The notes below the pieces were generated by a model. It was not told where the DNA came from and ran no database searches. It saw only the letters and a list, made by a program, of their open reading frames with translations. Below, in pieces: positions 4,631-57,295 of a DNA stretch of 64,000 bases. This DNA is from Candidatus Parcubacteria bacterium (lineage in GTDB: Bacteria > Patescibacteriota > Minisyncoccia > Phycocordibacterales > Zambryskibacteraceae), in the NCBI GenBank assembly GCA_019661785.1, contig JAIFWP010000003.1, positions 31,009-95,008 of the forward strand. Reading direction: 5' to 3'. The translations under genes and the position numbers were made by a program. How positions within the stretch are numbered: position 1 is the first letter of the stretch; each line of letters begins with the position of its first letter.

Positions 4631-4694
4631 TTCTGTTTATTATCTTTGAATTTTAGCATGAATTCTGCGTATGTTTATAGGCCTATTTTAGAGC

Positions 4695-4723
4695 TTGACA
4701 AATGGCTATATTTATGATAGTAT
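4695..4723 (+). promoter_or_regulatory. Sigma70-type promoter: TTGACA, 17 nt spacer, extended -10 TGA-TAGTAT. Member of a repeated promoter family.
   Basis: Sequence is cTTGACAaatggctatatttaTGATAGTATataagaag. The stretch TATGATAGTATATAAGAAG is identical to the promoter at 52271. Confidence 0.55.
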
Positions 4724-4784
4724 ATAAGAAGATGTACGGTTCGGGGATTTCCCCCGGAACGGAACTCCTGTACTGGAGCTTACA

Positions 4785-5240
4785 ATGCCGAGCAACGAGA
4801 TTAACCTGAGCAGCTCAGTCCTCACTTCCTTCGAGGTTGTGCGCAAGGCGCTGGAGATTCGCTACGGAGCTCAAATCAGCTTCGTAGGTTCGATGAAAAT
4901 CACGCCCGACGATCCGGACAGAACGCCCGGCTCGAAACGCCAGGTCGTTCTACAGACCAAGTTCGACACGATGAAGGGGACCCTTCGTATCATGGTCGAA
5001 CTGGGACTCAGCGCAATCGTGTTCCTCGAGTATATCGACTGCGCATGGCGCTTCGATTACGCCGAGGTGCGGGTGCAGAATCCGAACGACCAATCGGCAC
5101 GCACCGACGGGAGCTACCGGTACACTGTTTGCTATGCGAAGGAGCGCCAGTATGACACCCATCTGTTTGTCGGAGACCCGCTAGACAACATCAGCTATCG
5201 CGGCCATGATATGAGCGATAGGGTCGAAGTGAAGTGGTGA
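4785..5240 (+). CDS. Hypothetical protein (151 aa)
   Basis: ORF with GGAG 6 nt upstream of the ATG. A strong promoter lies upstream and an intrinsic terminator downstream. No recognisable domain. Confidence 0.55.
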   Translation: MPSNEINLSSSVLTSFEVVRKALEIRYGAQISFVGSMKITPDDPDRTPGSKRQVVLQTKFDTMKGTLRIMVELGLSAIVFLEYIDCAWRFDYAEVRVQNPNDQSARTDGSYRYTVCYAKERQYDTHLFVGDPLDNISYRGHDMSDRVEVKW

Positions 5241-5249
5241 GTGGCTCAC

Positions 5250-5298
5250 GCCGCCCGAGAGTTAGAGTCGCCCGACTCAACTCGGGCGGCTTTCTTTT
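5250..5298 (+). terminator. Rho-independent terminator
   Basis: 10 bp GC stem gccgcccgag/ctcgggcggc with a nested inner hairpin, followed by TTTCTTTT. Confidence 0.55.
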
Positions 5299-42025: not shown

Positions 42026-42053
42026 TTGACAATACATTTTATAATGATATAAT
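42026..42053 (+). promoter_or_regulatory. Sigma70 promoter TTGACA-N16-TGa-TATAAT
   Basis: cTTGACAatacattttataaTGATATAATccc. Confidence 0.55.
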
Positions 42054-42100
42054 CCCAAAAGACTTTCAACCAACCGTTCATCTCATCTGTGGAGGTTCCT

Positions 42101-43063
42101 ATGTGGTTCAGAAAAAAGGATGCGGGGCCCAAAAGGCTCATGCCGAGGGGGCCCAAAGCCAAAAAGCCGAAAAGCCGCTTTAGGCTCTGGATGTCCGACC
42201 TTCCCTCGCGTGCAAGCACGAGGCTCGGGAAGAGCGCTGCATCGGCGAAGATCTTCTTCGCCGCTCGGTGGGCAAAGCTCGTGCCTTGGCTCAAGAGCAA
42301 GGCTCGCGTGCCAGACACAGGCCTGCCTGTCGGGATTATCGTGCAAGGCGTAGTAGCCATTGTAGTCGTCGCTATCCTGTGCTGGAAGGCGAGCGCGGCA
42401 ACCACGCACACGTGGGATAGCCTCAAGGCAATTCGCTGGCCCGTTCTGTCCCTGGCTTGGATTAGCGGAGTCGCCGTCGTACTCATGGCCTTGCTACTTA
42501 TCACTCTTGTCGTCATGAGACGCCGAGAGGCTAAGACAGCCCCAGCGCCGGAAGGACGTCCGTCTGCATCTACGTCAGGAACTCCCCCGCCGAAAAAGAA
42601 GAACGCGGGCAACGCACTCATTAACTTGGCGTTCAGCCTCGCAATCGTGGCGGCGCTCGTCTTCTTCGGTGTCCGCTTCTGGCAGATTTATCCAGAAGAG
42701 AAGCAGAAGGACAGGGAGTCGAAGGAGCGAATCGCCATTGCAGAGAGAGACCGAGTGGTCGGCTGCAAGACGAACGCCTGGGTAGACGGCTGCTCTACCC
42801 GTCCGAGGAAGTTCACCCGCATGATTTATGCGAGCGAACCGACCGAGGTCATCATGAATCCGGGTGACAAGCTCGTGTGGGTGGTCGACATCGGCCGCTG
42901 CAATGACTTGCTGACCTCGGCGCGCATGGAGGGCGAGTACAAGATCAGATCTTTCCGTACCAGACCGGGTGTCGACTCGCTGCAGGTGACCTTCCTCCTG
43001 CAGAAGACCGATGAACCTGAGAACCGCAAATGCGGCAAAACACCTACGACAGACATGTCGTAG
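42101..43063 (+). CDS. Hypothetical membrane protein (3 TM), Lys/Arg-rich N-terminus
   Basis: Start at MWFRKK with GGAGG upstream. No known domain. Confidence 0.45.
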   Translation: MWFRKKDAGPKRLMPRGPKAKKPKSRFRLWMSDLPSRASTRLGKSAASAKIFFAARWAKLVPWLKSKARVPDTGLPVGIIVQGVVAIVVVAILCWKASAATTHTWDSLKAIRWPVLSLAWISGVAVVLMALLLITLVVMRRREAKTAPAPEGRPSASTSGTPPPKKKNAGNALINLAFSLAIVAALVFFGVRFWQIYPEEKQKDRESKERIAIAERDRVVGCKTNAWVDGCSTRPRKFTRMIYASEPTEVIMNPGDKLVWVVDIGRCNDLLTSARMEGEYKIRSFRTRPGVDSLQVTFLLQKTDEPENRKCGKTPTTDMS

Positions 43064-43095
43064 GTGTTTTTCTTTCCATTTATCTCCTTGTCAGC

Positions 43096-43373: not shown

Positions 43374-43751
43374 CTAGTTAACTGTAGGGTTGATGCCAGG
43401 AACAGTAGGAAGCGAGCCGGATGAACCGCCAGTGCCGATACCAAGCGAGCTAGCTACGAACTTGACGAGGCCCCAGACTGCGACCATCACGAAGAGGGTG
43501 ACGATGCCGTAAATCATAATCTTCTTGCCCTCTTCCTTAGCCTCTTCGTTGCCTGCATTGAAGATGAACTTCATGAGACCCCAGAAGAATCCGAGGAGCG
43601 CAAGACCTACTACTATAGGAAGTGCTGTACCTACCCATCCAGCGACCGTGGTCATGAATGCGCTAAGGCCGGTCGTAGTGTTGGTAGTGGTTATCTGTGC
43701 CATGGCCAAACCCGGAGCGAGAGCGGCAAGAGCGATAATAATCTTTTTCAT
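43374..43751 (-). CDS. Small secreted/membrane protein, paralog 2 (signal peptide plus two hydrophobic helices; TrbC/VirB2 pilin-like)
   Basis: Signal peptide ..GLAMA|Q, core LLGFFWGLMKFIFNAGNEEAKEEGKKIMIYGIVTLFVMVAVWGLVKFV. Confidence 0.6.
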   Translation of the reverse strand: MKKIIIALAALAPGLAMAQITTTNTTTGLSAFMTTVAGWVGTALPIVVGLALLGFFWGLMKFIFNAGNEEAKEEGKKIMIYGIVTLFVMVAVWGLVKFVASSLGIGTGGSSGSLPTVPGINPTVN

Positions 43752-44469: not shown

Positions 44470-44850
44470 TTATTTTAGAGAGTTAATGGTGTTCTGCAGT
44501 ACAGTCGTGATAGCGGCCGCACCCAAGAGCACCGCCGTGCCTATGGCCGCGTATAGGAGAGCGGCCTTGGCAGTCTTTATCTGGCCCTCATCGCCGCCAG
44601 CCGTAACGAAGAGGAAGCCGGCCCAGATAAAGGCGACCACGGCGAGGACCGAGCCGATAGGAATGATGATTTTGTTTATGATAGCAGTGAAGAGGTCTGT
44701 CAGAGTGTTGCCTGCTCCCTTGAATGGATTCTCTAGCTTAGCTCCCACGTTTGAGTCAGAGCCTGAGTCAGCATGCACGGATACGAAGGACAAGAGCGAG
44801 AAGCAGATGAGGATGCCGAAGAGATATTTTTTCATCTGTTTTTGCATCAT
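44470..44850 (-). CDS. Small secreted/membrane protein, paralog 5 (signal peptide)
   Basis: Signal peptide ..VSVHA|D, core VVAFIWAGFLFVTAGGDEGQIKTAKAALLYAAIGTAVLLGAAAI. Confidence 0.55.
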   Translation of the reverse strand: MMQKQMKKYLFGILICFSLLSFVSVHADSGSDSNVGAKLENPFKGAGNTLTDLFTAIINKIIIPIGSVLAVVAFIWAGFLFVTAGGDEGQIKTAKAALLYAAIGTAVLLGAAAITTVLQNTINSLK

Positions 44851-45179
44851 GGAGCGCCAAGGATAGAGTATCCCTTATTCAAAAGCGCGTTGGTAATAGT
44901 ATATACGATGAGCCAGGCCGCCAGTATCCACACATAGCCGATAACCACCTTCATGAATATGCTCTTGGCCTCCTTTAGAGCTCCCGGGTCCCCGCCCGAA
45001 GTAAGGAGCTTGAAACCCGCATAGGCGAAAACTGCTGTCGCAAGGAGAGTAGAGATAATGACTAGGTCTTGTATCAGATTCTGCGACAGGAGAATGAGCT
45101 TCGCGTATGTACACGGATCTGCTTTCGTCCCATTGCACACTATGAGGTTAGCCCAGCCTGCAGCAAGATTGTTAATCAT
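44847..45179 (-). CDS. Small membrane protein, paralog 6
   Basis: Core AVFAYAGFKLLTSGGDPGALKEAKSIFMKVVIGYVWILAAWLIV. Confidence 0.55.
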   Translation of the reverse strand: MINNLAAGWANLIVCNGTKADPCTYAKLILLSQNLIQDLVIISTLLATAVFAYAGFKLLTSGGDPGALKEAKSIFMKVVIGYVWILAAWLIVYTITNALLNKGYSILGAP

Positions 45180-47004: not shown

Positions 47005-47153
47005 ATATTAATTGTATCCTACTTCGCTCTCGCTACGCAGAACAAGTCAGATATTTGACAAGCATAGATAATAAGGATACAGTGAGCTGAGTAAGCACAA
47101 GCGTGGACACACGTCTTCACTTGGAGTCACCCGAACCTTTAGGAGATTTGCAG

Positions 47154-47618
47154 ATGAGAATGATACGCATTAGCGCAGTGCTCGGCTGCTTGGCAGCTCT
47201 CTCGCTCGCGGCACCCGCCGTGGCGCAGCAGAAGGTCTCCATGACGCTCCAGGCGCGCGAAGCCAGCAGTCAGGGCCTCGGAGGCCCCTCGGCCCTCATG
47301 TCGCTCTACGCGACGCCGGATAGCGCAAGCGGCGTCACCCGCGTGGTGAGCGTCGCGAAGGGCAAACCCTACACCCTCGACATGCGGCCGACCGGCGCGA
47401 ACCTGTGCCAGGTCTGGAATCCTGACCCCAGGGTTCAGAACTGGAGCAACATCGCGCTCGAGAACGGCGCCTACCACTCGAGGCAGATCGATAAGACGCA
47501 TTCATGGTATGGGAAGGACATCAACATGCGGTGCGGCGTCGCCCATGAGAACGAGCTCACTCACGCAATCGAGTTCTCTCAAGTCGCCGTCGCGAAGCTC
47601 ACCTTCGTAGCCAAGTAG
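47154..47618 (+). CDS. Hypothetical secreted protein (start at MRMIRIS; GC-rich)
   Basis: Signal peptide MRMIRISAVLGCLAALSLAAPAVAQQ and a strong downstream terminator. Confidence 0.5.
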   Translation: MRMIRISAVLGCLAALSLAAPAVAQQKVSMTLQAREASSQGLGGPSALMSLYATPDSASGVTRVVSVAKGKPYTLDMRPTGANLCQVWNPDPRVQNWSNIALENGAYHSRQIDKTHSWYGKDINMRCGVAHENELTHAIEFSQVAVAKLTFVAK

Positions 47619-47649
47619 CGGAGCGAAGAAGGCGGAGAGCGGAGCTGTC

Positions 47650-47690
47650 CCCGGCACACACTTGTGTGTGCCGGGGATTTTCTATATTAC
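47650..47690 (+). terminator. Intrinsic terminator
   Basis: CCCCGGCACACACttgtGTGTGTGCCGGGGattttct. Confidence 0.7.
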
Positions 47691-47830: not shown

Positions 47831-50290
47831 CTACAAGCAGATAAGCGAAGCCAAACTATCCCCTTCTCTCAATTTCATAATCCTGACTCCCTGAGTCGAG
47901 CGGCCGAGCACTGGCACTTCATTCAAATCCACTCGGACCACTTGAGACTTCTTCGATATAGCTATGACCTCAGACTCTTCCTCAGTCACTAGCTGCGAGG
48001 CCATCACCGGACCGGTCTTGGCTGTAACCTTCGAGGTCAGTATCCCTGAGCCTCCCCTGCCCTGTGTCTTATATTCGCCAAGATCAGTGCGCTTGCCGTA
48101 GCCGTTGCCAGAGATGACGAGGAGGCAAGCACCCTTCCACTTAGGCTTTATGATATGCGCTCCAACTACCTCATCCTTCTTATCGAGCTTAATAGCTCTA
48201 ACACCGCCAGCAGCACGACCCATCTCGCGGATGTCCGAATCCTTGAAGCGTATAGACATGCCCTCCTTGGTTACTATAGATATGTCGTCCCCCTTCTCCG
48301 CATGTCCGACAGCCATGAGCTTATCTCCGGCATCTAGGCGGATAGCGATGATGCCGCTAGCCCTTACATCGTGGAAGCTCTTGGCCGAGACGCGCTTGCC
48401 TGTGCCGTTCTTAGTCACAAGCACTAGCGAGCCCTCAATGTTCTTAAGCTCCTTCGGCATGGCGAGGATAGACGTCACCTTCTCGTCATCTGAGAGCGAG
48501 ATGAAGTTCATAATGGACTTACCCCTCGTAGCGCGCTTACCCTCCGGTATGTCATACATCTTTATCTGATAGGCCTTGCCCTTGTCGGTGAAGAAGAGAA
48601 GGTCCGAGTGCGTCGAAGCCGTGAGGAATATGGTGACGAAGTCCTCTTCCTTAGTATCGAGGTCGATGACGCCCACGCCTCCGCGCTTCTGTCTCTTGTA
48701 CTCATGAGGGTCTGTGCGCTTCACATATCCACCGCTCGTGAGGACGAGTGCTTGCTCCTCGTCAGGTATTAGGTCCTCGACTGATATAACCTTGGCTCCG
48801 CCCTTCACCACCTTGGTCCTGCGCTCGTCACCATACTTAGTCTGGATGTTTACTAGTTCGTCTTTCACCACGCTGCGAATCTTTTTTTGCGAGCCGAGCA
48901 AGTCCTTGAGTTCTGCAATGAGAGCTTGGACCTCCTTTAACTCGTCTTCTATCTTCTTCCTCTCAAGGCCGGCAAGCTTCTGCAAGCGCATCTCAAGAAT
49001 GGCGTTGGCCTGTAGCTCGCTAAACTTAAACTCCTTCATGAGCGCAGCTCTCGCATCGTCAACGGTCTTCGAGGCGCGTATGAGCTTAACAATGGCATCG
49101 ATATGGTCGAGGGCCTTCTTGAGTCCAAGGAGTATATGTTCGCGAGCCTCGGCTTGCGCAAGGTCGAAGGCCGAGCGGCGTCGCACCACCTCCTCTCGGT
49201 GCTTTATGAATTCGACAAGCATCGACTTCAAGCTCATGGTCTGCGGCACGCCGTCGACGAGGGCAACCAAGTTCACATGGAAGGTCTCTTCAAGCTGAGT
49301 ATGTTTATATAGAGCGTTCAAGACCTTCTGCGGCTGGCTGCCCTGCTTTAAGTCTATGGCGATGCGGATATCCTTGGTCGACTCGTCCCGGAGACCCTTC
49401 ACGCCTTCGATCTTCTTCTCTCTCACGAGGTCGGCAATCTTGCCTATGAGGTCGGCTTTGTTCACCCTATAAGGAATCTCGGTGATGATAATCTGATTGC
49501 CGCCCTTAGTCTCCTCCACAATCTCCGCCACTCCACGCATGAGGATGCCTCCGCGGCCAGTAGCATACGCGTGAGCAATGTCCTTCTGATTGAAAATGAT
49601 TCCGCCTGTTGGGAAGTCAGGACCCTTCACAAACTCCAAGAGGTCCTCAGTAGTAGCCTCAGGATCATTAATAAGCATGATGGTCGCGTCTATGACCTCG
49701 TTCATGTTGTGCGGAGGGATGTTCGTAGCCATACCAACGGCAATACCAAGAGTGCCGTTTAGGAGCAGGTTCGGCGCTGCTGAAGGCAAGACGACGGGCT
49801 CCTTCTTCGTCCCGTCGTAGTTGGGTCGGAAGTTCACCGTATCCTTCTCTATATCCGCAAGGAGCTCGCCCGCAACGCGAGACATCTTGGCCTCGGTGTA
49901 ACGATATGCGGCTGCGCCGTCGCCGTCTATGGAGCCAAAGTTACCCTGGCCGATGACAAGCGGATAGCGCGTAGCAAAGTCCTGCGCGAGCTTGACCATG
50001 GCGTCATATACAGACGCGTCGCCGTGCGGGTGGTACGAGCCGAGCACCTCTCCGACTACCGTAGCGCTCTTACGAGTCTTAGCCGAGGCCGAGAGGCCTA
50101 TCTGGTTCATGGCAAAGAGGATGCGGCGATGCACCGGCTTCAACCCATCTCGCACGTCAGGCAAGGCGCGGTCGGTGATGACCGACATAGCATAGTCGAT
50201 GAAGGACTCCTTCATCTCTGTCACGATGGACCTCGAGACGACCTTGTCCTGCCTGCCGGCAGGGATGTTTGTATCTTTAGTTTCCGCCAT
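47831..50290 (-). CDS. gyrA: DNA gyrase subunit A (type IIA topoisomerase A subunit)
   Basis: Catalytic Tyr region [13 protein letters not shown] region, and C-terminal beta-pinwheel repeats. Confidence 0.88.
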
Positions 50291-50549
50291 TGGTGAGTAT
50301 CTTGGTTAAGGAGAGCCAGCTAGACTCAATGCCGTGGAAGATGTTCTGGAAAGGAGTGACGCCTGAAGTTGGCACTGCGGCGAGATTCACTGCAGTGTCG
50401 GCGCTCTCTACAACCTTCGAAGGAGCAGCAAACATGATAGCCGACCAGAAAGCGAAGATAACCAAGGTCGTGCTACCTGCTGTGAGCAGAGCAAAGCGCT
50501 TCTTGTGGTGAAGGGGCTTCTTGTGCAACTCCATTATATATTTCTTCAT
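50277..50549 (-). CDS. Small membrane protein (90 aa)
   Basis: Single TM ORF overlapping the gyrA start by 14 nt. Confidence 0.35.
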
Positions 50550-51100
50550 TCCTCTTTTAGCACTACTATATCACCCTCCTTGCCCTCAAGATCCTTCTTC
50601 TTCACTACGAGTTTGTCGAGATGCTCGCCGTCCTCGCCAGCTTCCTTCAAGAACTTCTTTAGGCTCTCGGGCGAGTAGCTTATAGGTATGATGAGCGACG
50701 GCTCAAGAGAGACAGCGAGCTTGTATGCAGGAGCCGCCTCTAGCGTATCGACTGGCACGAAGAGGATATCGATGTCCTCTAAATTTTCTATTGTCTCTGC
50801 ATTTAAAGCAGGATTTGAGAGCGAACCAAGAAAACACAAATTCAATCCTTCAAAATTTATAAGATAGACAGTATTTATCTTCCCATCCTTGCCCTCAGAG
50901 AGAAAACCTTTAACCGAGATGTCCTTAACCTCGTACTCGCCAGGACCCGAAATGACGAAGCCCTTGCCCTCGACTGCAGAACCCCCAGTGCTCATGAGAG
51001 TGAGGTCGGCGTTGCCTCGGTTCGAGGTAGGGTTCACCGCAAGAGACAGGTCTCCTTGGGAAATCTTCACAGATTCCCCGCCCTGATAGCTGATTATCAT
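50546..51100 (-). CDS. MBL-fold metallo-hydrolase-like protein (degenerate)
   Basis: Beta-lactamase-fold-like pattern of short beta strands with Asp/His positions. Weak call. Confidence 0.4.
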   Translation of the reverse strand: MIISYQGGESVKISQGDLSLAVNPTSNRGNADLTLMSTGGSAVEGKGFVISGPGEYEVKDISVKGFLSEGKDGKINTVYLINFEGLNLCFLGSLSNPALNAETIENLEDIDILFVPVDTLEAAPAYKLAVSLEPSLIIPISYSPESLKKFLKEAGEDGEHLDKLVVKKKDLEGKEGDIVVLKEE

Positions 51101-51171
51101 GGCCCTATTTTAGCATATTTCCCGAGTTTCCGCCACCACAAATAACCTTATTCTTAGGCTTGATTTAATCC

Positions 51172-51200
51172 TTGACAAATAGGCTTAATTATGATAGTAT
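51172..51200 (+). promoter_or_regulatory. Sigma70 promoter of the TTGACA-N17-TGATAGTAT family
   Basis: cTTGACAaataggcttaattaTGATAGTATagaaggag. Confidence 0.55.
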
Positions 51201-51257
51201 AGAAGGAGAATCGGAGATGTGCGCAGTTCCCCACAACCAAGCTACAAGGAGGACGGG

Positions 51258-51692
51258 ATGCCCGCAAACAACAAAGGTTGGGCCCAGGCGATTGGCTACC
51301 TCATCGCCTTTGTGATGATGATGATCGGAGCTGGAGCCCTAGGCAGATACATGCATGGCCGCGAACGCGACCAGGCAGAGCGGGACAGCGCGCGAAAGTC
51401 CGCTGCCACCGACTCAGTCGTCGGTATCCGCGTCATCTGCGGGAAAGTGAAGAGCTTCGAGCGCATCACCTCCCACGAGTTCCCTGTCGTGCACATTATG
51501 ATGGAGAACGGCGATACGTACCGCCTCCTCGGCGATGTCGGGACGAACATGCCTCCCGTGCTCAGCCCGAGCGTCATCAGGTACATGGTGCCTGAGTGGG
51601 TGGAGGAGCATTCCTTACTGCACGCAGGCACCGGCGGGGTAATCCTCACCATGATGCCAGTTCGGAACTGCGACCAGCACAAAAAGAAGTAG
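51258..51692 (+). CDS. Hypothetical small membrane protein (144 aa, one TM)
   Basis: Start at MPANNKGW with AAGGAGGA 5 nt upstream. The track's GTG start at 51219 is an over-extension. Confidence 0.5.
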   Translation: MPANNKGWAQAIGYLIAFVMMMIGAGALGRYMHGRERDQAERDSARKSAATDSVVGIRVICGKVKSFERITSHEFPVVHIMMENGDTYRLLGDVGTNMPPVLSPSVIRYMVPEWVEEHSLLHAGTGGVILTMMPVRNCDQHKKK

Positions 51693-51706
51693 ACACGCAG
51701 CTTTAC

Positions 51707-51736
51707 GCCCCACTCTCACCGGTGGGGCTGCTTTTT
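51707..51736 (+). terminator. Intrinsic terminator
   Basis: GCCCCACtctcaccGGTGGGGCtgctttttt. Confidence 0.7.
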
Positions 51737-51752
51737 TATAACTTTTATCTCT

Positions 51753-51781
51753 ATTGACAATAGATAGATACTATGATAATC
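51753..51781 (+). promoter_or_regulatory. Sigma70 promoter (same family; -10 is TGATAAT)
   Basis: aTTGACAatagatagatactaTGATAATct. Confidence 0.5.
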
Positions 51782-51840
51782 TGGTCCCAGAACCAATGTA
51801 GTCCTAGTCTCACGCAGTCCCCCATCCGCACGGAGGATTC

Positions 51841-52165
51841 AATGATTCGCAAGTTCGCCACATCGATCGCACTCGCAGTTCTCTTTCTCGTCGCCGGCCT
51901 GTCTTATTTGAAGGCGCAGGGCGTCGAGCCGGAACCCTGCCTGAAGGCCATCAAGGTCTCAGAACTCCAGAAGAATGGCAAGCGCACGATCACCATGGCT
52001 TGGCCATCCGATACGACGAAGACCAGAACAATCGAGCGCAAGAATCGCCGCCCGACCATCGTCGTCGGCAAGTTCTACTGGCTGACCTACGACGGCGACC
52101 GTATCCAGGATATCTACCAGGGCAAGGGCTGTCCGGCGACGAAGTCTGGCAGCGTGAAGAAGTAG
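51841..52165 (+). CDS. Hypothetical small secreted protein (108 aa)
   Basis: Start at MIRKFATSIALAVLFLVAGLSYLKA with GGAGG upstream and a signal peptide. Confidence 0.55.
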
Positions 52166-52229
52166 CTTGCGGTTCCCCCACCGCGTGAACCCCTGATCCC
52201 GACATGAATCGTCGTCGGGACGGGGCATA

Positions 52230-52255
52230 AACCCAGGAAACTCCTGTGGTTTTTT
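52230..52255 (+). terminator. Intrinsic terminator
   Basis: CCAGGAaactCCTGTGGttttttt. Confidence 0.55.
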
Positions 52256-52270
52256 TCATCTTTAAAATCC

Positions 52271-52299
52271 TTGACAAAAAATATATAGTATGATAGTAT
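52271..52299 (+). promoter_or_regulatory. Sigma70 promoter (family member; 19 nt identical to the 4695 copy)
   Basis: cTTGACAaaaaatatatagtaTGATAGTATataagaag. Confidence 0.6.
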
Positions 52300-52305
52300 A
52301 TAAGA

Positions 52306-52839
52306 AGGTTGATAAATCACTTGGCAAAGCCTTGCGGCTGAGCTAGTGTAGTCATAGGCAAGATGTACCCTGAATTTGTCCCCTCTCGTACGATCGGAGG
52401 AGCTCTAGGGGCCGTGATTGTGCCGACGTAAGGGTCCTCGCACGAGGAACCAAGCAAGGCGCTAATGGCTTACTTATAGCTCAAGTTCGATACAGAGCGG
52501 ACCGTTCGTCCCTGCTTTGCTCGATGTGCAAGGCAGCGCCTTCGTTCACCCCCACTGCGAGGCCTCACGGCAACATGCAGACAAGACGATGGTGAAGCAT
52601 CGATAGGTTAAGGGCAATACCTTAAGCCCCAGCGCATGAGTGGTGAGACAGAGGGATTAAAACCCCTGCCGCGTAACCACACCCTGAGCTGAAGGCCGTC
52701 GGATCGCTAAAAACGCCGGCCACCGATTGAGAAGACGAATAGTCAGTAGCACGGGTCTGTCCCGCGGCCGCCATCCTCATGGTGGACGGCCGCGGGACAG
52801 AACCCCAGCAGTTACGCATGTTGCGTAGCTGTTTTTTTT
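52306..52839 (+). ncRNA. Candidate structured non-coding RNA, about 535 nt, family unassigned
   Basis: A consensus promoter lies 7 nt upstream. No plus-strand ORF longer than 35 codons in any frame. Multiple GC-rich hairpins, including a perfect 14 bp stem CUGUCCCGCGGCCG/CGGCCGCGGGACAG. It ends in an intrinsic terminator GUUACGCAugUUGCGUAGC followed by U8. Confidence 0.55.
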
Positions 52840-52944
52840 ATGTTAATTTACGCAGGTTCCTTACTAGAACCCGCTCTCCGATATCCCCTCTCGCCTAGGC
52901 AAACACTCTGAGGCTCGAGGACCGGAAGCGGCTTTAAACTCAAA

Positions 52945-54120
52945 ATGGCATTATTCGGCAGGAAAAAGGCTCCCGTCGCAGAGGCGTCGGACGAGCAGGT
53001 AGAGGTTAAGCAAGCAGTCAAAGAGAAGGTAAAGAAAGAGATCGCGGCGCCTGAGGCAGACAACTCCCTCATGGGCTCGCTTGTGGCCAAGTCTCCTAAT
53101 CCTCCCAAGGTGGACGATGTGGTCGAGGGTCCAGTGCTCTCTATAGACAAGGGTGCTCTATACATTGACCTTCCTCCCTTCGGCACAGGTATCATCTACG
53201 GACGCGAGTTCATGAACGCGCGCGACATTGTGAAGCGCGTCAATGTGGGCGACACCGTCGCGGGCAAGGTGGTCGGCATGGGCGGCAAGGATGGATACAT
53301 AGAGATATCTCTCAAGGAAGCTCGCCAGGCTCTCATCTGGAGCGAGGCTGAAGAGGCTATCCGCGACAAGCGCATATACGAGCTTGCTATCACCGACGCC
53401 AACAAGGGCGGACTCATACTTAACTGGCAAGGCATACCTGGCTTCCTCCCCGCTTCTCAACTCAAGCCAGAGCACTATCCTCGCGTTTCTGACGGCGACA
53501 AGGACAAGATACTCGACGAGTTGCGCAAGCTCGTAGGAGAGAAGCTGTCCGTCACTATCATCGGTGCTACTCCTAAGGAGGGCAAGCTCATCTTCAGCGA
53601 GAAGAGCCCAGAGTCGAAGAATAAGGAGAACATCATCGCCAAGTACTCTCTCGGCGACGAGCTCACTGGCGAGGTCACTGGACTCGTAGACTTCGGAGTC
53701 TTCGTTAAACTCGAAGAGGGACTCGAAGGCCTCGTGCACATCTCGGAAATTGACTGGGGCCTTGTAGAGAACCCTAAGGCCATGTTCAAAATCGGCGAGA
53801 AGGTGAAGGTCAAGATTATCGAGATTAAGGACGACAAGATATCTCTCTCCATCAAGGCCTTGAAGGAGAACCCATGGAAGGAGGCTTCGGAGAAGTATCA
53901 CAAGGACGAGGTAGTGGACGGCGTCATCATCAAGTACAACAAGCATGGAGCTCTCGCCTCACTCGAGGAGGGCGTCGCGGGTCTCGTGCACGTCTCTGAG
54001 TTCGGCTCTGAGGATAAACTAAGGGAGAAGCTAGAGATGGGCAAGACCTACAGCTTCAAGATAACCCTCTTCGACCCTAAGGAGCAGAAGATGGCACTCT
54101 CGTTCGTAGATAAAAAGTAA
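52945..54120 (+). CDS. rpsA: 30S ribosomal protein S1 (four S1 domains)
   Basis: Repeated S1 OB-fold motifs (G.V.G.V..G.FV). Confidence 0.88.
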   Translation: MALFGRKKAPVAEASDEQVEVKQAVKEKVKKEIAAPEADNSLMGSLVAKSPNPPKVDDVVEGPVLSIDKGALYIDLPPFGTGIIYGREFMNARDIVKRVNVGDTVAGKVVGMGGKDGYIEISLKEARQALIWSEAEEAIRDKRIYELAITDANKGGLILNWQGIPGFLPASQLKPEHYPRVSDGDKDKILDELRKLVGEKLSVTIIGATPKEGKLIFSEKSPESKNKENIIAKYSLGDELTGEVTGLVDFGVFVKLEEGLEGLVHISEIDWGLVENPKAMFKIGEKVKVKIIEIKDDKISLSIKALKENPWKEASEKYHKDEVVDGVIIKYNKHGALASLEEGVAGLVHVSEFGSEDKLREKLEMGKTYSFKITLFDPKEQKMALSFVDKK

Positions 54121-54133
54121 ATCGATCTTTGAA

Positions 54134-54170
54134 AAGCCCCGCAACTAAGTAGTTGCGGGGCTTTTCGTTT
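54134..54170 (+). terminator. Intrinsic terminator
   Basis: aaAGCCCCGCAACTaagTAGTTGCGGGGCTtttcgttt. Confidence 0.7.
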
Positions 54171-54226
54171 TATGTCTATATATAGACAGAACAAGCTCAC
54201 ATACACCACCCTTGCTAGGAGAGGCC

Positions 54227-54661
54227 ATGCCGTCAGCCACCAATATCCGACATGCGGATATGGAGCGCGTGACCCTGGCGCTCCTCTTACTACTCACGTT
54301 CAACCGAGAGAAACCGGGTTGCTACCCAGAACTCGACCTCGAAGGGTTCCTCGAGGCTTTGGACCAGGCGCTCGTCATCCTTGAGCGCAGCAACCCAGGC
54401 ACCGCTTCACGCATCAAGCTCGACAAGCCCGATCGGGAGACCTTCATCCAAGGCATCCTCGAGCACTACAGCAATGTGGTGAGCATCGGCAAGTGGCGAG
54501 GACAGCTCCTCATCCGCTTCAAGGCTCAGTCCGGACAGAACATCCGCAAGATACTGGGATATATCCAACTGGACCAAGCTTGGAAGATCGAGATAGAGCA
54601 CGCTTGCGAAGGAGGCCTGCGCATCTATCGCGGTCTCGTGAATCCGCCAGACACTGGGTAG
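54227..54661 (+). CDS. Hypothetical protein
   Basis: ORF with GGAG upstream. No known domain. Confidence 0.4.
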   Translation: MPSATNIRHADMERVTLALLLLLTFNREKPGCYPELDLEGFLEALDQALVILERSNPGTASRIKLDKPDRETFIQGILEHYSNVVSIGKWRGQLLIRFKAQSGQNIRKILGYIQLDQAWKIEIEHACEGGLRIYRGLVNPPDTG

Positions 54662-54716
54662 AGCACTCTTCCGGAAGACGGCTAACGCCTCGACTAATCC
54701 TCGGGGCGTTTCCTTT

Positions 54717-56921: not shown

Positions 56922-57239
56922 ATGGCAGATAGGCTCGACTTCGTGATGAACGACAGGCTCGGCTATGGCCGTCTCCTGACGCCGGACGGCAAGTCTCGCA
57001 TCGTGCTTTCAAAATGCATGGGCAGGGAGATGGTGAGATACTTGCTCGAGAGGAAGGAAGCGGGCGATGCAGAAGCTCGTAGCACGCTCGACAAAATCGA
57101 CGCCGCGACGAATCTCGACGAGAGAATCGCACTGGGCAAGAGTCTCATCGGGGTGAAAGGTCCCATGGGCCGTGCCGAAGTCGTGTCCGGACTCATGAGC
57201 CTCAACACGATGGACAGCCCTCGCCTGTTGCCAAACTAG
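56922..57239 (+). CDS. Hypothetical small protein
   Basis: 105 aa ORF followed by a strong terminator. Confidence 0.4.
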   Translation: MADRLDFVMNDRLGYGRLLTPDGKSRIVLSKCMGREMVRYLLERKEAGDAEARSTLDKIDAATNLDERIALGKSLIGVKGPMGRAEVVSGLMSLNTMDSPRLLPN

Positions 57240-57257
57240 CGCTCCTCGCCTCCCCCA

Positions 57258-57295
57258 GAGCCCCGTTCCGACCTAAGTCGGAACGGGGCTTTTTG
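57258..57295 (+). terminator. Intrinsic terminator, twin of the one at 12078
   Basis: gaGCCCCGTTCCGACctaaGTCGGAACGGGGCttttt. Confidence 0.7.

Follow-up and report, generated by a model that had tools for sequence, protein, structure and literature searches.

What are two small, individually packaged genes and a structured non-coding unit doing in a row upstream of the gene for ribosomal protein S1, and do the three belong together? The locus lies on a 114,758-bp contig of a metagenome-assembled genome of Candidatus Parcubacteria (candidate phyla radiation, CPR, or Patescibacteria), of which we analyzed a stretch of 64,000 nucleotides, here called the window. Between a gene for a metallo-β-lactamase-fold (MBL-fold) hydrolase and rpsA stand unit 1, encoding a protein that we call P1, unit 2, encoding P2, and a non-coding unit (the ncRNA); together they are referred to as the island. 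We consider it reasonably probable that the P1 and P2 units are accessory cassettes specific to this lineage, carried in a hyperplastic slot that separates the hydrolase gene from rpsA. This reading builds on direct observations: the anatomy of the units, the coding status of both genes, the lack of homologues of their products and the variability of a slot whose flanks are conserved. In our sequence comparisons, no evidence ties the P1 and P2 genes to the neighboring ncRNA.

Anatomy of the three units

Each unit runs from its own predicted promoter to its own predicted terminator.

51167-51208, plus strand: unit 1 promoter, −35 TTGACA at 51172-51177 and extended −10 TGATAGTAT at 51192-51200
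51246-51253, plus strand: unit 1 Shine-Dalgarno sequence AAGGAGGA, 4 nt before the ATG at 51258
51258-51692, plus strand: P1 open reading frame (ORF), 144 aa, NCBI hypothetical protein KW800_02640
51707-51737, plus strand: unit 1 intrinsic terminator, hairpin at 51707-51728 (8 bp, 6 of them GC) followed by TGCTTTTTT
51754-51782, plus strand: unit 2 promoter, TTGACA (51754-51759)-N14-TGATAATCT, a perfect match to the extended −10 pattern
51832-51836, plus strand: unit 2 Shine-Dalgarno sequence GGAGG, 5 nt before the ATG at 51842
51842-52165, plus strand: P2 ORF, 107 aa, NCBI hypothetical protein KW800_02645
52232-52256, plus strand: unit 2 terminator, an interrupted 5+2 bp stem (52232-52249) followed by T7
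52266-52307, plus strand: promoter of the non-coding unit, second copy of a 42-nt repeat, with promoter elements at 52271-52299
52306-52840, plus strand: non-coding structured transcript unit of about 535 nt, with a 21-bp hairpin and then a terminator hairpin and T8

A first-pass annotation of the sequence had described unit 1 as a promoter, a Shine-Dalgarno sequence, a 144-aa protein with a single transmembrane segment and a terminator, and we recovered every element within one or two bases of where it had been placed. The unit 1 promoter joins TTGACA to TAGTAT (51195-51200) across a 17-nt spacer and has a TG upstream of the −10 hexamer. Its 5' untranslated region (UTR) is unstructured, folding worse than shuffled sequences (z +2.1), and the terminator hairpin, followed by a T6 run, folds at −16.2 kcal/mol (z −3.1). 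Together, the unit 1 terminator and the unit 2 promoter form a composite terminator/promoter junction. The promoter, GGAGG, signal-peptide protein and terminator ascribed to unit 2 are likewise all present, and only the protein length of 108 aa had to be corrected, to 107 aa. The unit 2 promoter had been overlooked by a general promoter scanner (its −10 is TAATCT). The 5' UTR of unit 2 is also unstructured (z +0.7), and two further 3'-UTR hairpins (52169-52225) precede its terminator, giving the 3' UTR as a whole a z of −4.0. The third unit holds up as a non-coding one, extending from promoter to terminator with no coding signal in any of the six frames.

The start codons of both genes needed attention. 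For P1, the first-pass annotation had moved the start from a GTG at 51219 to the ATG at 51258, and this is the supported start because the 13 codons between the two have a near-zero coding score (0.06, vs 0.37 for the P1 ORF), only about 12 nt separate the GTG from the expected start of transcription, and the NCBI gene call is also 144 aa. For P2, the ATG at 51842 is the better start because the one chosen by NCBI (ATG 51773, 130 aa) sits within the −10 element of the P2 promoter itself and has a negative coding score (−0.23). Starting at 51842 puts the signal peptide at the N-terminus.

P1 has a predicted N-terminal transmembrane helix at about residues 9-29, then a charged segment predicted to form a helical stalk, and a β-rich C-terminal part. 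It contains exactly two cysteines, Cys61 and Cys138, which bracket the domain. P2 begins with a tripartite Sec-type signal peptide predicted from sequence, MIRKFATSIALAVLFLVAGLSYLKAQG, which divides into MIRK, FATSIALAVLFLVAGL and SYLKAQG; the hydropathy of residues 4-18 is 2.11. The mature part of about 80 aa is strongly basic and β-rich and also has two cysteines, Cys33 and Cys97. Over the whole of P2, lysine and arginine number 20 vs 8 for aspartate and glutamate.

P1 and P2 are genes without detectable relatives

We scored both ORFs by codon-usage log-odds, with 24 long genes of the window as the training set. P1 reaches 0.37 per codon and P2 0.48, next to a core-gene mean of 0.43 and minimum of 0.23. 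Off-frames of both are negative, and no alternative frame or overlapping antisense ORF scores above zero. Because their codon usage is host-like and the alternatives are at or below zero, we regard P1 and P2 as real genes.

Neither protein could be placed in a family. There was no match to P1 or P2 in an exact look-up in public assemblies, and a word-index search of 5.8 billion clustered proteins returned each protein itself and nothing else. A six-member profile made from P1, P2 and four slot proteins of related genomes (described below) retrieved only its own members from the same collection, each a singleton cluster, and HMMER, run exhaustively with a profile against 1.84 billion representatives, found only the five input proteins. 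Pfam, NCBIfam, PHROGs and PADLOC hold no family for either protein, and the PDB holds no sequence match.

Structure prediction, which the first-pass annotation had proposed as a check, gave models for both proteins and no significant Foldseek match for either. The AlphaFold2 runs used five-sequence alignments. The P1 model (predicted local distance difference test, pLDDT, 56) consists of a helix at residues 6-50 followed by six strands, and the P2 model (pLDDT 50) of a helix at residues 3-24 followed by four strands. Against the PDB, the P1 model had no match at E ≤ 0.001 and the P2 model had none at all. The top matches of the P1 model, which are non-significant, were oligonucleotide/oligosaccharide-binding folds (OB-folds), notably the B subunits of AB5 toxins (E 0.02, TM-score about 0.47). 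AB5 B subunits, such as those of cholera toxin and heat-labile toxin (LT), are signal-peptide proteins of about 100 aa in which one disulfide joins the N- and C-terminal parts. P1 differs from them in having no sequence similarity to them, and confidence in its model is low, leaving the resemblance to AB5 B subunits and OB-folds as a model-based lead only.

A variable slot between conserved flanks

To see what relatives carry at this position, we fetched 80 loci with S1 as bait, from species-representative genomes that are mostly Zambryskibacteria-like Parcubacteria with S1 proteins 65-87% identical. The features that frame the slot in the window are as follows.

50546-51100, minus strand: MBL-fold (Lactamase_B_3) hydrolase gene, Pfam PF13483 (E 1.1e-15), left conserved flank
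52820-52944, plus strand: rpsA promoter (TTGCGT-N17-TAATTT with TG) and structured 5' leader, right boundary of the variable slot
52945-54120, plus strand: rpsA, ribosomal protein S1, Pfam S1 domains (E 4e-41), right conserved flank
47831-50290, minus strand: gyrA, chromosomal neighbor

The hydrolase gene is transcribed away from the slot. It is adjacent to rpsA, divergent and syntenic in 65 of the 80 relatives; gyrA (in 58 of them) and a 90-aa ORF share in this synteny, which covers 58-65 loci. Relatives place the hydrolase gene and rpsA between 67 and 4913 nt apart, and many of them have hardly anything in the slot; in the window, the distance is 1845 nt. P1 and P2 had no tblastn match in any of the 80 loci, and blastn and nhmmer found no homologue of the ncRNA in them. 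The only parts of the island that match any relative are 20 nt beside the hydrolase gene, a promoter element and the rpsA leader. The first-pass annotation had suggested a functional link among the three units and looked to their co-occurrence in other genomes; at the level of sequence there is none, as P1, P2 and the ncRNA are all absent from the related loci though the flanks are syntenic in most.

What does persist is the first promoter of the slot. It is orthologous, spacer included (TTGACAAAnAGGnTnAAgTATGmTAgGAT), in L012, L014, L025, L026, L028 and L033 (related loci are cited by number, with positions after a colon), where it lies about 70 nt from the hydrolase gene, and the cargo behind it differs. 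This cargo includes LysM proteins (378-403 aa), a secreted protein of 292 aa, a membrane protein of 157 aa and a conserved coiled-coil protein of 100 aa. In more distant relatives, the slot holds a gene of 230-254 aa whose product is putatively a methyltransferase, judging by the appearance of its sequence. Among 26 candidate cargo ORFs from 16 genomes, 22 have an N-terminal hydrophobic segment, compared with 29% of all ORFs of 85-175 aa. The gap is thus a hyperplastic, variable slot whose cargo consists predominantly of small envelope proteins. It is the kind of content that recurs in relatives and not the sequences: small envelope proteins, often with an unrelated structured non-coding unit near rpsA.

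Separately, we observed that the coiled-coil protein of about 100 aa (MDxxTKKM...), which has no signal peptide, is the first cargo in three relatives (L025:9273-9575, L026:2719-3021 and L033:9403-9702). The copies match one another with pairwise E of about 1e-14 to 1e-17 and are driven by the conserved P1-type promoter.

A possible family of two-cysteine envelope proteins

Four plus-strand slot ORFs of 120-128 aa in relatives (L004:8828, L011:8269, L013:4457 and L001:8737) have a layout like that of P1 and P2. It consists of an N-terminal anchor or signal, a cysteine (often in C-G-x-V) opening a β-rich domain of about 65-80 aa, an aromatic Y-x-F strand and a second cysteine at most 14 residues from the C-terminus. 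In the six proteins, both cysteines align, and their spacing is 63-77 residues. The pattern fits 9 of 597 ORFs that have an N-terminal hydrophobic stretch, and six of the nine are slot proteins, a figure that is partly circular, the pattern having been derived from the same six.

The 26 cargo proteins were also compared all against all, without bias. The link between the L004 and L011 proteins is solid, with E 8.6e-6 in the 26-protein set and a reciprocal phmmer E of 0.006 among 5,201 ORFs. P1 has its best match in that set in L004:8828 (E 0.025), and hhalign of P1 against a profile of the four relatives' proteins gave a probability of 67% (P 5e-5). The best match of P2 is L013:4457, across the whole mature domain, with E 3e-4 pairwise and 0.010 in the 26-protein set. 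On these sequence comparisons, the link of P1 and P2 to the relatives' slot proteins is marginal. That P1 is a diverged positional homologue of the L004 and L011 proteins seems somewhat probable, the relationship of P2 to L013:4457 stands at about even odds, and that P1 and P2 are paralogues of each other is rather doubtful. Perhaps the two are members of a tiny, very fast-evolving two-cysteine family.

How the slot may work, and what weighs against this reading

In the reading that we favor, the slot of this genome would hold three independently transcribed cassettes. P1 would be anchored by its one N-terminal transmembrane helix and P2 exported via its Sec signal peptide, and each probably carries a small β-rich domain closed by one disulfide. 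The near-consensus extended −10 sigma-70 promoter and the strong, open ribosome-binding site would lead to strong expression. Each cassette could be expressed independently of its neighbors and of rpsA, with the terminators shielding rpsA and the neighbors from read-through. The products would act outside the cytoplasm, probably at the cell surface, where they may serve, for example, contact with host or partner cells or evasion of phage or host recognition. The cargo would turn over rapidly between related genomes, with the flanks and the first slot promoter staying fixed, and rapid turnover or diversifying selection may account for the extreme divergence of P1 and P2. Recombination could drive this turnover, whether it takes place in the conserved flanks or at the repeated terminator/promoter junctions. 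Homologous recombination in the flanks is at least as likely as junction-mediated exchange, which is suggested by analogy.

Several observations weigh against this picture or limit parts of it. Promoter and terminator activity is predicted from consensus only, and the unit 2 terminator is weak, at about −10.8 kcal/mol with z −0.3 when taken alone. The charges on either side of the P1 transmembrane helix are nearly balanced, which makes the topology ambiguous. The nearest relatives share no island sequence, and none is close enough to place recombination breakpoints. A non-coding unit beside envelope-protein genes recurs in five relatives, which leaves some room for a functional association. 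For the two-cysteine family, the relatives in the profile were first chosen by eye. An hmmsearch with the four-relative model across the 5,201 ORFs ranked P1 second among non-members (E 0.2) and did not retrieve P2. The hhalign probability of P2 against the same profile was 2%, and BLASTP found no similarity between P1 and P2. Finally, the low confidence of both structure models (pLDDT 56 and 50) means that no fold can be assigned.

Do the two genes and the ncRNA form one module?

The strongest alternative to lineage-specific cassettes is that P1, P2 and the structured RNA make up one functional module, for instance a device of the cell surface or for secretion in which the RNA would be regulator or cargo, and that their adjacency has been kept for that reason. 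The units are indeed adjacent and share one promoter type, the promoters of unit 1 and the ncRNA being 42-nt repeats. Moreover, positional non-coding units, each with a promoter, 260-500 nt and a terminator, share the slot with small envelope-protein genes in five relatives, usually beside rpsA, and this pairing is the only point that keeps the idea alive.

L011:8779-9168: non-coding unit
L008:8637-9127: non-coding unit
L031:9479-9841: non-coding unit
L007:9416-9822: non-coding unit
L001:9643-9893: non-coding unit

Four of these five are highly structured (z −4.6 to −6.7), and the one in L001 reaches only −2.1. The ncRNA of the window has a fold z of −6.9 as a whole (−5.2 as listed beside the relatives' units). 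Its 3' hairpins account for much of the whole-unit score, and the body taken without them has a z of −2.3, near that of the P1 and P2 mRNAs (−2.2). The units of all six genomes, that of the window included, may be fast-evolving structured RNAs, decaying cassettes or something else.

Further evidence separates the ncRNA from its neighbors and from its positional counterparts. Pairwise blastn among the six positional non-coding units, that of the window included, found no similarity, and most of the proteins that accompany them share none either. The order and number of units vary between genomes: the non-coding unit sits in the middle of the slot in L008 and L011 and is absent in L004, L013 and many short-gap relatives. 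In the window, each unit is insulated by its own terminator, and a search for complementarity between the ncRNA and the P1 and P2 mRNAs turned up nothing extended, the best stretch being 20 nt at 75%. The promoter recurs 47 kb away, where it drives an unrelated cytoplasmic ORF. Given this evidence, we think it quite unlikely that the three units form a module.

Database searches did not identify the ncRNA. Rfam offered no family at the gathering threshold or at E ≤ 10, and an Rfam scan of the slots of seven relatives likewise found no family. Exact-pattern scans for ncRNA segments gave 0 matches in IMG/VR (24-mer) and in JGI metagenome contigs. A string in the ncRNA, GGGGCCGUGAUUG...CGACG, had made transfer-messenger RNA (tmRNA) a candidate; ARAGORN and Rfam were negative, no T-arm or acceptor pairing was seen by eye, and the candidate was rejected. 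RNase P was rejected as well, Rfam being negative.

A promoter repeat and other insulated units in the window

The promoters of the island are part of a wider set. The pattern TTGACA-N14-TGNTANNNT has four perfect copies in the 64 kb, three of them inside this 1.1 kb. With at most one mismatch there are 10 matches vs 0.6 expected, and 10 were reached in 0 of 100 shuffles. A longer 42-nt promoter repeat (D1, 79% identity) occurs at 4690-4731, at 51167-51208 (unit 1) and at 52266-52307 (the non-coding unit). The stem-loops at the junctions in the window share no sequence, and the repeat is confined to the promoter part. Apart from the promoter repeat, a search for flanking direct or inverted repeats, as the sign of a mobile element, found none.

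The first-pass annotation had considered a run of insulated units unusual for this genome. The local density is real, with a terminator closing each of five plus-strand units that follow one another between 51.2 and 54.7 kb, rpsA among them with its own terminator at 54130. The unit type itself is general in this genome, and here the claim of rarity fails. About 15 strong terminators lie in the first 60 kb of the window, and at least five other units are built as promoter/ORF/terminator or ORF/terminator, those that could be tested being equally lineage-specific.

4695-5293: similarly built unit
42026-43070: similarly built unit
47055-47678: similarly built unit
54212-54710: similarly built unit
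56922-57292: similarly built unit

Three of the monocistronic ORFs with their own terminators (47103-47618, 54212-54661 and 56922-57239) have no Pfam family. They have no homologue in the 80 related loci, though their flanking genes are present in 27-74 of them. Among relatives, the gap between rpsA and pth varies from 6 to 2988 nt. An insulated unit seems to predict a lineage-specific gene in this genome, a pattern seen in 5 of 5 testable units.

The unit at 4690-5293 is of some interest in its own right. Its promoter is nearly identical to that of the ncRNA, sharing TATGATAGTATATAAGAAG, and has a spacer similar to that of the P1 promoter. It continues with a 5'-UTR hairpin, a 151-aa ORF (4785-5240) without a signal peptide and a strong terminator at 5264-5293. 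The ORF has a coding score of 0.28 and a GC content at third codon positions (GC3) of 0.74. Its product falls into no family of Pfam, PHROGs, NCBIfam or PADLOC, and none of the 80 related loci has a homologue.

Foreign origin and other explanations

A second alternative holds that P1 and P2 came recently from a foreign source, as moron-like cassettes of phage or other mobile origin inserted upstream of rpsA. Phage morons (Hendrix and colleagues) are promoter-gene-terminator units inserted between phage genes. The units described here resemble them in being, by consensus, self-contained with promoter and terminator between unrelated conserved genes, and moron cargo too is often membrane-bound or secreted. 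They differ in having neither a prophage context nor phage similarity and in their host-like codon usage. The build also recalls ORFans (genes without homologues) flanked by promoter-early stem-loops (PeSLs) in phages (PMC4122927), and P1 and P2 are themselves ORFans. In addition, GC3 is 0.78 for P1 and 0.79 for P2, more than 2 standard deviations above core genes (0.674 ± 0.046, maximum 0.74). Against an origin of this kind, blastn of the island found no match in 50,697 phage records, the ncRNA 24-mer had none in IMG/VR, and there was no PHROG family. By Pfam and neighborhood scan, no integrase, transposase or phage gene lies within about 10 kb of the island, and flanking direct repeats are lacking. 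The codon log-odds are those of the host, and the cassette promoters match the clade's own rpsA promoters. A foreign source is therefore decidedly improbable.

High GC3 is not peculiar to the island. The insulated orphan genes at 51258-52165, 47103-47618 and 4785-5240 have GC3 values of 0.74-0.80, at the top of or above the range of the 24 core genes, with host-like codon log-odds.

We also considered whether P2 could be a Sec-exported cationic antimicrobial of the bacteriocin kind and P1 its membrane immunity protein, an idea invited by the small, strongly basic mature P2 with its two cysteines and by the adjoining gene for a small membrane protein. Pfam and NCBIfam gave no match to a bacteriocin or immunity family, and no processing, export or transporter gene is nearby. 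Known bacteriocin/immunity pairs are usually co-transcribed; the two genes here are separately transcribed, with the membrane protein first. P1, moreover, resembles the exported two-cysteine proteins of relatives rather than an immunity protein, and we regard such a pair as very improbable. Least credible of all is that P1 and P2 are chance ORFs of a region with 54% GC, an explanation that could appeal to the lack of homologues and to several overlapping ORFs of similar length on other frames, and that fails on in-frame codon log-odds equal to those of core genes (the overlapping alternatives being at or below zero), strong Shine-Dalgarno sequences at the correct spacing, an N-terminal signal or anchor exactly at the start that these support, a promoter and terminator that bracket each ORF precisely, and the NCBI pipeline's call of both.

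Relation to known systems and significance

Flexible genomic islets are hot spots of bacterial pangenomes at which the content between conserved core genes is replaced. The slot resembles them in its conserved, syntenic flanks, in content that is variable in length and identity and rich in envelope proteins, and in having no mobility genes. It differs in being very small (0-5 kb) and directly upstream of an essential ribosomal-protein gene, and also in its conserved anchoring promoter, in the insulation of each cargo gene and in cargo without detectable homologues. No conspecific genome or contig turned up among the public assemblies and metagenome contigs searched. The locus is an ordinary example of flexible-genome architecture, and P1 and P2 are new ORFans.

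Our literature search found no description of such cassettes in CPR bacteria, the closest analogue being the account of PeSL elements, which flank ORFans in the hyperplastic regions of T4-like phages and for which a role in cassette exchange has been proposed (Comeau et al. 2014, PMC4122927). The likeness extends to the order of parts, a stem-loop, 15-25 nt, a near-consensus sigma-70 promoter, a Shine-Dalgarno sequence and a short, often ORFan gene. This layout is found at the junctions 51707-51845 and 52232-52299, the second of which leads into the non-coding unit and has no Shine-Dalgarno sequence. As with PeSLs, the elements occur in series between small genes, in variable regions that interrupt a conserved core, and content varies between relatives by insertion, deletion and replacement. 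The setting differs, a CPR bacterial chromosome here and a T4-like phage there, as does the repeat: only the promoter part is repeated here (42 nt, 79%), and the stem-loops are unrelated. A role of the junctions in recombination is an analogy. PeSLs were reportedly also described by Arbiol et al. in 2010.

A bolder version of the cassette reading can be built on this analogy. The gap upstream of rpsA, and other such gaps of the genome, would be a dedicated, promoter-anchored expression site in which self-contained cassettes are swapped by recombination at the terminator/promoter junctions. The cargo would be fast-evolving surface proteins and recurrent, unrelated structured RNAs of 260-540 nt, and P1, P2 and the four relatives' proteins would form one rapidly diverging family of disulfide-closed, possibly OB-like binding domains. 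We think this unlikely as a whole. If it were true, the cassette-exchange site would match, in a cell, the PeSL-driven hyperplastic regions known from T4-like phages, and genome-reduced, probably host-dependent CPR bacteria would gain a route to surface diversification.

CPR genomes are small, with a large share of genes without known function, and small surface or secreted proteins are the likeliest mediators of the dependence of these bacteria on other cells. For one clade, the locus shows that lineage-specific envelope genes occupy short variable gaps in a syntenic backbone and are packaged individually, with a near-consensus promoter, a strong ribosome-binding site and a terminator apiece. 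This provides a rule by which accessory surface genes, probably highly expressed, could be located in such genomes, and the units could supply natural strong promoter and terminator parts for a group with scarce genetic tools. It also advises caution, as insulated units that stand side by side at such a slot need not share a function. The locus would carry greater weight if junction-mediated exchange or a real two-cysteine binding-domain family were demonstrated.

Surroundings of the island and the rpsA leader

The neighborhood is ordinary chromosome, with gyrA, rpsA, pth and tRNAs. A 90-aa ORF lies between gyrA and the hydrolase gene. Downstream of rpsA are a 149-aa orphan ORF, pth and a gene resembling that of histidyl-tRNA synthetase. 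Further upstream are genes for pilin-like proteins of type IV secretion systems (T4SS), a solute-binding protein and a methyltransferase.

The 5' leader of rpsA is itself conserved and structured. It spans 52856-52935, beginning about 7 nt past the extended −10 promoter (promoter from about 52820), and its parts follow in the order GTTCYTTAYTAG..CCCGYTTCYGTTAYCCC, a variable stem, a GGCAAMCAYT loop, the returning stem and GGACCGGAAGCGGC. The leader is kept in at least 11 relatives, with copies at L003:9914-9995, L005:422-504, L006:2429-2507, L012:9958-10037, L026:3458-3537, L028:9914-9992 and L032:9904-9982. RNAalifold on eight sequences yielded 18 pairs, 7 of them with compensatory changes, and Rfam contained no match at E ≤ 10. 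Possibly, this is an undescribed S1 autoregulatory leader of Parcubacteria.

Two smaller observations concern the surroundings. About 6-8 kb upstream of the island, on the minus strand, lie genes for two small paralogous T4SS-pilin-like proteins (43374-43751 and 44847-45179; PF18895, E about 1e-10). The stem of the terminator downstream of rpsA (54134-54163, AAGCCCCGCAAC...GTTGCGGGGCTT) was found in none of the other 79 loci and is identical over 12 bp to L001:9862-9893, a terminator that stands before rpsA in that relative, which hints that terminator modules move between slots or genomes.

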